From positions 1 through 64,000 of the forward strand of contig JAEOUG010000027.1 of the NCBI GenBank assembly GCA_016839445.1: DNA of 64,000 nt. Direction: 5' to 3'. The notes beneath the pieces are model-generated. The model searched no databases. It saw only the letters and a list, made by a program, of their open reading frames with translations, and was not told where the DNA came from. A program made the position numbers and the translations under genes. The first letter of the stretch is position 1. Each line of letters begins with the position of its first letter. This DNA is from Candidatus Thorarchaeota archaeon (GTDB lineage: Archaea > Asgardarchaeota > Thorarchaeia > Thorarchaeales > Thorarchaeaceae). Below are positions 4,439-61,125 of the stretch, piece by piece.

Positions 4439-4930
4439 CTAGTAGCCACCTCGACGATCTCGACCGTAGCCTCCGTAACCGCCTTCACGGCGATCTCGCC
4501 CACGATCTCTTCCGCCGTAGTCGCCACCCCTATCGTACCGACGAGGTCGGTACTCACGCTCGTGCTCTGCTTCGGACATGTCCACCTCGTTGTTGACTTC
4601 GCCAATTGCCGCCTCTGCAGCGGCAATCTCGCCGTACCTGCCTATGTTCAGGCGAAGATGTCCCTGGAACAGGCCGGTGTAGCCGTTGGTCAATGTGTAG
4701 GTAGAGTCGACCTCAAACTTCTCAATCATATCGTCCCAAAGTGGCACAACCACAGTCCCTGTAGAGTCTCCAACTCTAGCGTCAAGAACACGATGATTTT
4801 CGTTATCCTTCCGCGAGAAGACTTCACGAGCCTCGCCCATCTCAATCACCTTGAAGGTGATAGTGATGTTCTTCATGCGAGGCTTCAGTTCAGCAACTGT
4901 GGCAAGAACGGGCTCACGTTCATAACTCAT
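4439..4930 (-). CDS. ssb: Single-OB-fold ssDNA/RNA-binding protein (archaeal SSB/RPA-like) with an RGG/Tyr-rich tail, paralogue 1
   Basis: OB motifs VGDSTG, VPLWD, NGYTGLFQGHLRLNIGRYG; tail RGGDYGGRDRGRDRREGGYGGYG. Confidence 0.85.
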   Translation of the reverse strand: MSYEREPVLATVAELKPRMKNITITFKVIEMGEAREVFSRKDNENHRVLDARVGDSTGTVVVPLWDDMIEKFEVDSTYTLTNGYTGLFQGHLRLNIGRYGEIAAAEAAIGEVNNEVDMSEAEHEREYRPRRYDRGGDYGGRDRGRDRREGGYGGYGRDRRGGY

Positions 4931-5068
4931 TGTAGCTCACATCAGTGCGTTTGCAGGGATTCGATAACTAGGGCGTAAGACAGAACAAGTACCGATATCG
5001 ATAGGCAAGATCTGGTTGAGCCTCTGGTTGAGTTCCTGCGGGTTTCTGACACCCTCGAGTCCTTATAA
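4931..5068 (-). promoter_or_regulatory. TATA box and long conserved structured 5' leader of SSB paralogue 1
   Basis: TTATAAGG (5061-5068 on minus strand), followed by ordered motifs shared with 60773-60922. Confidence 0.65.
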
Positions 5069-5151
5069 TCTTGTTTCCGGAGGGGAATCAGCCGACTTCA
5101 AGATGGCACTCTGCAGTGCCCCTATTGCGTAGCTCACCAGTTCCTGGTTCA

Positions 5152-60202: not shown

Positions 60203-60772
60203 TTAGTATCTTCTGCGTCTATCACGACCACCGTAGCCGCCACTGCGACCACGATCACGGTCACGGCCGCCGTAGCCACCGCCACCGCCACCGCCGCCGT
60301 CACGGTAGCCACCGCCACCGCCACCGCCGCCTCTGCTGCCGCCATAGCTTCCGCCGCCACCTCTTCGGCCGCCGAAACCACCGCGTCTGCGTGTGTCCTC
60401 GTGCTCCTCTGCGCTCATGTCGTTCTCCATGTTGACTTCCTCGATGGCTTCCTCAGCCTGGCTGAGCTCACCATACTTGCCAACATTAAGACGGAGATTT
60501 CCGCGGAAGAGACCGGTGTATCCATTACGCAAGGTGTAGGTACCACCTTCTTCAACGCTGTCAATAGCCTCATCCCAGAGGGGAACCGCGACACAACCTG
60601 TCGTGTCTCCGACAATGGCATCAAGTACTCGATGCGACGTGTTGTCATTTCTAGAGGTAACCTCGCGTTCCTCGCCCTTCTCGACCACCTTGAAGGTGAT
60701 GATCAAGTTCTTCATTCGTGGCTTCAACTCAGCCACAGTAGCCTCAATTGGCTCTCTTTCTTCGTAGCTCAT
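60203..60772 (-). CDS. ssb: Single-OB-fold SSB/RPA-like protein with a Gly/RGG-rich tail, paralogue 2
   Basis: N-terminus MSYEEREPIEATVAELKPRMKN is nearly identical to 4439-4930; long G/R/Y tail. Confidence 0.88.
   Translation of the reverse strand: MSYEEREPIEATVAELKPRMKNLIITFKVVEKGEEREVTSRNDNTSHRVLDAIVGDTTGCVAVPLWDEAIDSVEEGGTYTLRNGYTGLFRGNLRLNVGKYGELSQAEEAIEEVNMENDMSAEEHEDTRRRGGFGGRRGGGGSYGGSRGGGGGGGGYRDGGGGGGGGYGGRDRDRGRSGGYGGRDRRRRY
60272..60331. repeat. 27-nt direct repeat (33-nt period) encoding the poly-Gly-Tyr tail
   Basis: GTAGCCACCGCCACCGCCACCGCCGCC at 60272 and 60305. Confidence 0.8.
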
Positions 60773-60922
60773 TGTGTTTTCTCTCACTTTGAGTTTGCAG
60801 GTGCTCAAAACTAGCGATTCTTCGTGGACTCTGCGAATCGGGATATGGTTCCACTCACGCGATCTAGAAAGGACCTCTTGCTTGGTATGCCTGCAGGATT
60901 TCCTCAATTACAATGCCTTAAG
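60773..60922 (-). promoter_or_regulatory. TATA-like box and long conserved structured 5' leader of SSB paralogue 2
   Basis: CTTAAGG (60916-60922), followed by the same ordered motifs as 4931-5068. Confidence 0.65.
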
Positions 60923-61125
60923 AACTTGTGTAAGGAGCCATAAGAGGCCAAAACTGCAACCACTGACAGCGAGAAGAACACGCACGACCTAACCAGATTT
61001 CTTAATTAGCCCACGTGCAAGACCAATGCCAAGTTCGCGTGGTCTGAATCAACGTTAGGTACTGGTGACTTGGTATACGTCAGTTCTATCTGTTGACTCG
61101 GCCTCGCAGAGGGAGGTATAGGAAC

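Follow-up and report, generated by a model that had tools for sequence, protein, structure and literature searches.

The window, by which the whole analysed stretch of 64,000 nt is meant, carries two genes for SSB-like OB-fold/RGG proteins on its minus strand, CDS 4439-4930 (copy 1) and CDS 60203-60772 (copy 2). Among solved structures, human SOSS-B1/hSSB1 and the Sulfolobus SSB are closest to the OB domain of copy 1 (E ~1e-11). The same genome holds two further close paralogues, a tail-less one outside the window (G000:C164:81003-81371) and one on contig C119. The upstream neighbour of copy 1 is an M24 peptidase gene and that of copy 2 encodes a divergent large membrane or surface protein. 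As the neighbouring genes differ between the copies, the sequence that is shared upstream belongs to the SSB-like genes themselves.

An order of motifs common to both upstream regions had been proposed in a sequence-only reading of this DNA, and upon re-reading the minus strand all of these motifs were located. Both regions contain a TATA-like box, GCAGG 27 bp further on, CUAGUU(U/A)U, CCUGC, a small hairpin, a purine-rich SD-like block, and ACAAUG. The motif distances given earlier for copy 1/copy 2 (26/26, 14/16, 12/13, 43/52, and 17/16 nt) were right to within 1-3 nt: a start-to-start recount gave 27/27 from the TAAGG-aligned TATA hexamer to GCAGG, 14/16 from GCAGG to AGAGG, 12/13 from AGAGG to AGATC, 42/51 from AGATC to CTAGTT, 14/13 from CTAGTT to CCTGC, and 17/14 from CCTGC to GTGAG. 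The features are listed below in the order in which they occur on the minus strand; motifs for which no basis is given were read from the letters, and the helices (P1 to P5), alignments (A3 to A6), and models (R1 and R2) are described further on.

Copy 1
5061..5076, minus strand: promoter, consisting of an A-rich stretch and TATA-like TTATAAGG (TATA hexamer 27 nt from GCAGG)
5061-5068, minus strand: TATA-like TTATAAGG
5035-5046, minus strand: GCAGG-bearing motif GAAACCCGCAGG
4931..5039, minus strand: leader, predicted 5' UTR of 109 nt; a diverged, weak member with a middle part that is not alignable (R2 local match)
5035..5039, minus strand: P1 5' strand GCAGG, with the predicted TSS at G5039 (sequence, MFE, promoter spacing)
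5021-5025, minus strand: AGAGG
5009-5013, minus strand: AGATC
4964..4971, minus strand: CUAGUUAU, a degenerate form of the CUAGUUUUG block (sequence, model match)
4966-4971, minus strand: CTAGTT
4949-4957, minus strand: CCTGC-bearing motif CCTGCAAAC
4953..4957, minus strand: P1 3' strand CCUGC (pairs with 5035-5039 in the MFE)
4938..4949, minus strand: P5 hairpin CGCA-CUGA-UGUG, overlapping SD-like GUGAG at 4936-4940 (MFE; weak, -2.8 kcal/mol, z 0.0)
4936-4940, minus strand: GTGAG
4928-4933, minus strand: ACAATG
4439..4930, minus strand: CDS of 163 aa, SSB-like OB fold and RG/RD-rich tail (PF21473, E 2.7e-12)

Copy 2
60916..60930, minus strand: promoter, consisting of an A-rich BRE-like stretch and TATA-like TTCTTAAGG (27 nt from the start of TTAAGG to the G of GCAGG)
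60916-60922, minus strand: CTTAAGG
60890-60902, minus strand: GCAGG-bearing motif GAAATCCTGCAGG
60773..60894, minus strand: leader, predicted 5' UTR of 122 nt; a solid member of the family model (R1 and R2 scores)
60890..60894, minus strand: P1 5' strand GCAGG, with the predicted TSS at G60894 (sequence, MFE, promoter spacing, family pairing)
60880..60883, minus strand: P2 5' strand AAGC (MFE pairing with GUUU of the U-tract block; P2 85 % paired in A6)
60874-60878, minus strand: AGAGG
60866..60872, minus strand: P3 5' strand CCUUUCU, the pyrimidine block (folds, CM alignment)
60861-60865, minus strand: AGATC
60818..60824, minus strand: P3 3' strand CGAAGAA, the purine block (folds, CM alignment; two P3 pairs rank 28 and 52 of 8385 column pairs in corrected mutual information)
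60806..60814, minus strand: CUAGUUUUG block, which supplies the P2 3' strand and is conserved better than any other block of the leader (columns almost without variation in A3, A4, and A6)
60809-60814, minus strand: CTAGTT
60793-60801, minus strand: CCTGC-bearing motif CCTGCAAAC
60797..60801, minus strand: P1 3' strand CCUGC (pairs with 60890-60894 in the MFE; helix 91-92 % paired across the family)
60783..60793, minus strand: P5 hairpin CUCA-AAG-UGAG, overlapping SD-like GUGAGAG at 60781-60787 (MFE of the 3' segment)
60783-60787, minus strand: GTGAG
60770-60775, minus strand: ACAATG
60203..60772, minus strand: CDS of 189 aa from the conserved ATG, SSB-like OB fold and Gly/Arg-rich (RGG) tail (PF21473, E 1.2e-14; ORF table)

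An N-terminal extension of the protein into this region was rejected, as an in-frame stop codon is located just before the ATG of copy 1, although the frame of copy 2 is open from a TTG at 60907. A direct repeat, CTCAACCAGA, is present in the interior of copy 1 at 5023-5032 and 5011-5020.

Promoter geometry and the predicted transcript start

Related upstream regions were taken from collected loci, in which 73 protein matches yielded 61 unique upstream regions; one region that was too short and the loci of distant homologues (L004-L010, L035-L039) were left out. A TATA-like hexamer was present 26-31 nt upstream of a [G/A]CAG(G) anchor in 60 of the 61 unique leaders (the exception being L048), with a spacing to GCAGG of exactly 27 nt in 36/60, using a TATA pattern that was hand-built from the same sequences and that also helped to choose the anchor where several candidates existed. 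In an independent check of the region 22-36 nt upstream of the ATG, such a hexamer was found in none of the 61 leaders and a W6 run in only one of the 61. Archaeal TATA boxes are centred near -26/-27. With the spacing observed here, the TSS is thus predicted at the G of GCAGG, which promoter geometry would place at G5039 for copy 1 and G60894 for copy 2 and not near 5046 and 60902, where it had been expected earlier. The same geometry argues for a long leader with a predicted length of 105-138 nt. An upstream open reading frame or leader peptide was rejected: an upstream ATG is lacking in 25/60 leaders, and the commonest ATG column is occupied in 8/60. Just upstream of BRE/TATA, a palindrome, TGT(A/G)CACA, is conserved in the genus.

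Architecture of the leader and evidence for pairing

A set of sequence blocks is common to 60 unique leaders of relatives (Thorarchaeota MAGs). Among the islands of conservation that had been proposed from the two copies, GCAGG, CUAGUUUUG, CCUGC, and ACAAUG are kept in the family, whereas the family alignment shows no conservation of AGAGG or AGATC. Folding of individual leaders produced a recurring irregular rod made up of P1, P2, P2b, P3, and a variable tip. P1, which closes the rod, is formed by GCAGG[U] and (A)CCUGC, the 3' strand lying ~25 nt before the AUG. P2 joins AAGC to the GUUU within the CUAGUUUUG block, which is nearly invariant; a divergent subgroup uses AAGACGAG with CUCGUUUU. 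P2b is a short GCG/CGC helix that is only 73-74 % paired. In P3, a pyrimidine block such as CUUUCU pairs with AGAAG(G), or GUCUCC with GGA(U)GAC in the divergent subgroup. The rod is followed by the hairpin P5 and then by a purine-rich GAG(A/U)GA(U) block located 6-10 nt before the AUG. The U-tract AGUUUUG resembles an Sm site, at which SmAP/Lsm proteins might bind. A by-eye reading of the alignment revealed no consistent K-turn, C/D-box, or BHB-intron signature, and an alternative pairing between the pyrimidine block and the SD-like block was dismissed for want of support in the divergent subgroup.

The closing stem between GCAGG and CCTGC had been predicted from the two copies, and it is indeed paired in the unconstrained MFE structure of both leaders. 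In A3, a structure-blind MAFFT alignment of the 60 leaders, P1 was 91 % and P5 80 % paired, and pairing fell to 30-41 % when the partners were slid by 1-3 columns. The stem's sequence varies at its edges: the closing pair is G-C in 37, G-U in 17, A-U in 5, and something else in 1 of the 60 leaders, and the fourth pair is G-C in 49 and G-U in 10. The CAG/CUG core never varies and is therefore silent on covariation either way, so that the covariation sought in this helix is seen in its edge pairs and not in its core. The G-U pairs always have the G on the 5' strand and the U on the 3' strand, an orientation that fits a sense RNA and not duplex DNA. When the three core pairs of P1 were enforced, the MFE energy remained unchanged in 56/60 leaders (exceptions: L013b, L021a, L027, and L044).

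P5 has the clearest independent support among the helices. It was the MFE hairpin in all 12 isolated 3' segments that were folded, with stems that are unrelated in sequence: CGCA/UGUG in copy 1, CUCA/UGAG in copy 2, and UCGC/GCGA, ACUC/GAGU, CUCG/CGAG, and a long UUAUGC/GCAUAA variant. In the same 12/12 segments its 3' arm overlaps or abuts the SD-like GAG(A/U)GA, leaving the AUG free. The stem energies range from -1.8 to -10.6 kcal/mol, with the window copies, at -1.8 and -2.8, being very weak. The anti-SD was taken from a family member, the 16S rRNA of the genome itself being assembled in its 5' part only. The 16S rRNA of this family member ends in GGATCACCTC, so that blocks of the GUGAU type can pair with the anti-SD; as the GAGAGA forms match this end less well, the block is termed SD-like only.

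The folding energies of the leaders are modest. Compared with dinucleotide shuffles, the mean z-score over the 60 leaders was -1.09; 13/60 were below -2, most of them from one subgroup (-2.4 to -3.7). With z-scores of -0.15 for copy 1 and -0.6 for copy 2, the energies of the window copies are unexceptional. RNAalifold recovered P1 alone on A6, and P1 with a 3-bp P5 on the first alignment of 30 sequences. A greedy search for the longest helix between the 5' and 3' parts picked G-U-rich alternatives involving the U-tract in many leaders and was too noisy. Both arms of the CGATTC/GAATCG hairpin that had been suggested inside copy 2 are present, but the hairpin is not used in the copy 2 MFE structure; its GAATCG 3' arm abuts the conserved GAAGA block.

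A covariance model, R1, was made from 18 seed leaders, copy 2 among them, and 22 hand-assigned pairs, and was rebuilt from 84 matches to give R2. In the CM alignments A5 (62 distinct rows) and A6 (83 distinct rows), which were fitted to the model and lean towards it, 87.6 % and 85.3 % of the cells were paired, respectively, vs 36-49 % with partners slid by 1-3 columns. Changes on both sides occurred in 16/22 pairs in A5 and in 18/22 in A6, against 9.0±1.4 and 11.5±1.4 in shuffles. In both alignments, all 500 shuffles stayed short of the observed value in each of five measures. By APC-corrected mutual information in A6, six of the 22 proposed pairs rank 3, 7, 28, 29, 30, and 52 of 8385 column pairs; at least one top-ranked pair comes from each of P2, P2b, P3, and P5. 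The support for P2, P2b, and P3 comes from these model-fitted alignments.

Copy 2 is a solid member of the leader family: it scored 72.7 bits with R1 (E 3e-10) and 70.5 bits with R2, and the match, at 60770-60895, extends over the full model. Copy 1 has diverged and is a weak member. Its best R2 match, obtained in a filter-free search of 401 nt, covers 4928-5040 on the minus strand at full model length (16.6 bits, E 9e-4), and it was not recovered by R1 or R2 at the scale of the own genome. Copy 1 retains the promoter spacing, P1, a degenerate U-tract block, P5, and ACAAUG, and its interior has diverged.

Distribution and association with SSB-like genes

Within the own genome, R1 and R2 match at two places only, both before SSB-like genes, namely copy 2 and a third copy outside the window (G000:C164:81387-81517) that scores better than copy 1 (43.8 bits with R1 and 76.3 bits with R2). 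The large model searches used stricter filters, which may lose weak matches, and with these R2 was found in 70/86 genomes and 14/16 genera of the Thorarchaeota family. In an even sample of the phylum, it matched in 20/151 genomes, all within that family (R1: 19/151), and in 0/124 of the sampled genomes outside the family, though SSB-like genes exist there. A lack of conservation of the motifs in orthologues had been named as a way to refute the element; instead, GCAGG, CUAGUUUUG, CCUGC, the SD-proximal hairpin, and ACAAUG are conserved over 14/16 genera. Long leaders that the models did not recognise precede the SSB-like genes of genus g17 (L129-L131) and those outside the family (L027, L035-L039).

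All 50 matches that were inspected, i.e., 30/30 fetched loci (some overlapping) and the 20/20 weakest among the R2 matches listed, are found immediately 5' of an SSB-like ORF, and the model ends at the ATG of this ORF. Genomes of the same genus have 2-7 SSB-like homologues each, and at least one was present in 23/24. The leader precedes both RGG-tailed and tail-less paralogues. The suggestion that the two copies share a selected element holds beyond chance, as it recurs in 60 unique leaders and the model matches occur only before SSB-like genes.

The element had not been recognised as a known family, in agreement with Rfam 15, which gave no match in the whole window at gathering score, cspA thermoregulator included. 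At E<=1, the sole match in five loci that hold the leader was an unrelated, weak snoU83B elsewhere in L001. The leader is conserved, exclusively associated with SSB-like genes, and covarying in its pairing.

Possible function of the leader

We think that the leader is a post-transcriptional control module common to all paralogues, a function that we infer from these properties; it probably controls the amount of the nucleic-acid-binding proteins that these genes encode. As a tentative first choice, we regard it as a conserved, partly folded 5' leader specific to the SSB-like genes of one Thorarchaeota family that could well serve protein feedback, with or without an input from temperature. Transcription would start at the first base of P1, tucking the 5' end of the mRNA itself into the helix that closes the rod, and P5, the second small hairpin, would touch the ribosome-binding region. 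Free single-strand-binding, RNA-melting proteins may bind the U-tract or unpaired stretches, both in the leader of their own mRNA and in those of the paralogues. The bound protein would remodel P1-P3 and P5 and thereby tune the translation and/or the mRNA life of every paralogue. Temperature could plausibly serve as a second input by acting on the same weak structure, the stability of the fold being marginal. The OB domain encoded behind the leader is of the Sulfolobus SSB/hSSB1 type. According to PMC10684826, a crenarchaeal SSB (of Saccharolobus) melts dsRNA and complements the loss of csp in E. coli, and its level increases 1.8-fold when the temperature is lowered from 75 to 55 °C. The authors describe the regulation of this SSB as unknown and point to the thermoswitches in csp 5' UTRs.

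A constitutive stability or translation element, in which P1 and the rod block 5'-end-dependent decay or boost initiation with neither a switch nor a role for protein, is somewhat unlikely. Bacterial mRNAs such as ompA are stabilised by stems at their 5' terminus; here P1 begins with the predicted +1 nucleotide and is also the best supported helix and the sole one that RNAalifold recovers on A6. However, if the leader were a generic stabiliser, it ought to occur before other highly expressed genes as well, and the 50/50 inspected matches and the two in the own genome precede SSB-like genes. For the same reason, a generic element of highly expressed genes was rejected. Moreover, a cap-like stem does not need a strongly conserved U-tract and P5.

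We consider it unlikely that the leader is a protein-independent RNA thermometer of the cspA kind, the marginal fold of which would shift with temperature and alter access to SD/AUG or mRNA half-life. No alternative conserved fold was found, Rfam cspA was not matched, and the P5 hairpins of the window copies are very weak (-1.8 and -2.8 kcal/mol). What speaks for it, besides the marginal stability of the fold and the overlap of P5 with the SD-like block, is the lack of a cold-shock-domain gene in the own genome and in all but 4/86 family genomes. In addition, PMC10684826 describes the homologous crenarchaeal SSB as cold-induced and Csp-like and bacterial csp genes as using 5' UTR thermoswitches.

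Conservation at the DNA level only, with a promoter, an initiator, and a transcription-factor operator, and with GCAGG/CCTGC as two half-sites and not an RNA helix, is quite improbable. GCAGG does lie at a fixed distance from TATA as an initiator would, the invariant CAG/CTG core could equally be an initiator element or protein site, and the conserved TGT(A/G)CACA palindrome is located just upstream of BRE/TATA. Against this, the changes in P1 keep RNA pairing, including strand-specific G-U in 17/60 and 10/60 leaders at two pairs, and the P5 hairpin is kept while the sequence of its stem is replaced. Pairs of P2, P3, and P5 also stand at the top of the mutual-information list, and conserved blocks run right up to the AUG. 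A small-ligand riboswitch, which the multi-helix leader with its invariant single-stranded blocks might bring to mind, is hardly plausible and the least likely of the proposed functions, as the leader stands only before genes for one nucleic-acid-binding protein family (50/50 inspected matches, never metabolic or transport genes), variation is greatest in the interior of the rod, with no conserved junction core, the conserved blocks being helix strands and the U-tract, and Rfam gave no match.

The leader is best read, by analogy, as a functional counterpart of the 5' UTRs of cspA-type genes and of the operator of T4 gene 32. It would be a member of neither, as there is no corresponding Rfam match and no homology. 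The csp leaders carry conserved boxes at their extreme 5' end and next to the SD, and CspA is thought to feed back on them. As in the cspA, cspB, cspG, and cspI 5' UTRs of E. coli, a leader of more than 100 nt, predicted in the present case, is common to paralogues of a small OB-fold RNA-melting protein, and conserved boxes are located at the extreme 5' end and beside the SD. The two protein families are also functionally equivalent in that the crenarchaeal SSB makes up for csp loss in E. coli, as reported in PMC10684826. Unlike cspA, the leader has no sequence or structure match in Rfam terms, an archaeal promoter, and a different fold, and unlike Csp the encoded protein has an OB fold of the SSB/hSSB1 type (PF21473) and not a cold-shock domain.

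The T4 gene 32 operator consists of a 5' pseudoknot followed by an unstructured A/U-rich tract. In the leader, by contrast, a long rod closed by the predicted 5' end of the transcript is combined with a small SD-proximal hairpin, and there is no homology. The two are alike in that the mRNA of an SSB has a structured 5' element followed by sequence leading to the ribosome site, which T4 uses for feedback; according to PMC535899, T4 gp32, an SSB, is an mRNA-specific autogenous translational repressor. A third comparison is with archaeal L7Ae, which PMC5539422 describes as an RNA-binding protein believed to control translation by way of a structured 5' UTR motif. Like the L7Ae k-turn leaders, the gene of an archaeal RNA-binding protein would here have a structured 5' UTR (a predicted one); unlike them, it carries no k-turn signature (3-nt bulge, tandem G-A pairs) in the by-eye reading of the alignment.

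The relation to cold-shock-domain proteins can be followed across the family. Genes for these are absent from the own genome (89.8 % complete) and are present in 4/86 genomes of the family, namely in 3/3 of genus g17 and in one genome with 9 % contamination. None of the three g17 genomes has a model match, this being one of the two genera that lack matches, and each has a single SSB-like gene behind a different long leader. Such a pattern would fit functional replacement; coming from a single clade, it is a hint and not a correlation.

To our knowledge, few cis-regulatory RNA structures have been catalogued for archaea. For Asgard archaea, none was found in Rfam 15 or in a literature search, and the latter yielded no description of the leader reported here. 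The leader does not extend beyond one family of uncultured archaea, and its mechanism is one that we infer. In practical terms, it marks the true start codons of a multi-copy SSB-like gene family in which open upstream frames invite mis-annotation. It is possible, albeit rather doubtful, that Thorarchaeota without cold-shock-domain proteins run a Csp-like circuit made of other components, in which all paralogues of an expanded group of RNA chaperones of the SSB-type OB-fold/RGG kind are wired together via one structured leader that would sense the free chaperone pool and, owing to its marginal stability, also temperature, by melting of the rod that the 5' end of the mRNA itself closes. In PMC10684826, the up-regulation of archaeal SSB-type RNA chaperones in the cold is stated as an open question. 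The leader offers a concrete candidate for such cold control of SSB-type chaperones, in a lineage related to the one studied there.

A tail-less paralogue and tandem copies

The highest score of the second covariance model of the leader (R2) among the leaders of the organism's own genome (G000) was obtained outside the window, directly in front of a third SSB-like paralogue:

G000:C164:81387-81517 (-), also L075:1501-1631 and L003:1885-2015: leader, 76.3 bits
C164:81003-81371: third SSB-like paralogue, tail-less

Use of the family leader thus extends to paralogues that lack the RGG tail.

Tandem arrangement of SSB-like paralogues is frequent, with a spacing of about 800 nt, and each of the genes carries its own full promoter and leader. 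Examples are:

G004:C17:26584-27985
G014:C7:95796-97176
G002:C45:23681-25126
G009:C89:658-2149

Variation in leader and promoter

A direct repeat, CTCAACCAGA-GG-CTCAACCAGA (window 5011-5032, -), lies inside the copy 1 leader at the place that is taken by helices P2 and P3 in relatives, and may be the route by which the interior of this leader diverged. The SD-proximal hairpin P5 varies as well: in one subgroup, the 4-bp hairpin gives way to a far stronger one (-8 to -10.6 kcal/mol), whose 6-bp stem, UUAUGC/GCAUAA, has UCA/UGA on its two sides.

L087, L108, L109, L110, L115, L116, 3' 45 nt of each leader: UUAUGC/GCAUAA variant of P5

In genus-level promoters, a conserved palindrome, TGT(A/G)CACA, is located directly upstream of the BRE/TATA elements (...CCACTGTACACAAGTTCTTAAGG). 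It could be a transcription factor site common to the SSB-like paralogues.

L018, L020, L012 (examples among relatives), just upstream of the TATA box: palindrome
Window ~60925-60932: palindrome, partial

Annotation of start codons and a 16S rRNA gene

The frame of copy 2 is open 5' of the conserved ATG (window 60773-60907, -), yielding 234 aa from the TTG at 60907 versus 189 aa from the ATG, and frames open upstream in relatives reach 316 aa. Because of this, gene callers may annotate false N-terminal extensions that mask the leader.

In the 16S rRNA gene of the relative G100, ...GTATCCGTAGCGG and the terminal GGATCACCTC are separated by an unrelated segment of some 85-100 nt that contains hairpin-like repeats (L106 ~1415-1500, -) and has the appearance of an intron or insertion in the rRNA gene.

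Cold-shock-domain genes in genus g17

No match was obtained when the three genomes of genus g17 (G052, G062, and G121) were searched with the leader model. Each has a single SSB-like gene (loci L129-L131), and all three carry two to three cold-shock-domain (CSD) genes. Elsewhere in the family, CSD genes occur in one g23 genome only (G183, with 9 % contamination). CSD genes and SSB-like genes with their leader may replace one another, although the pattern comes from a single clade.
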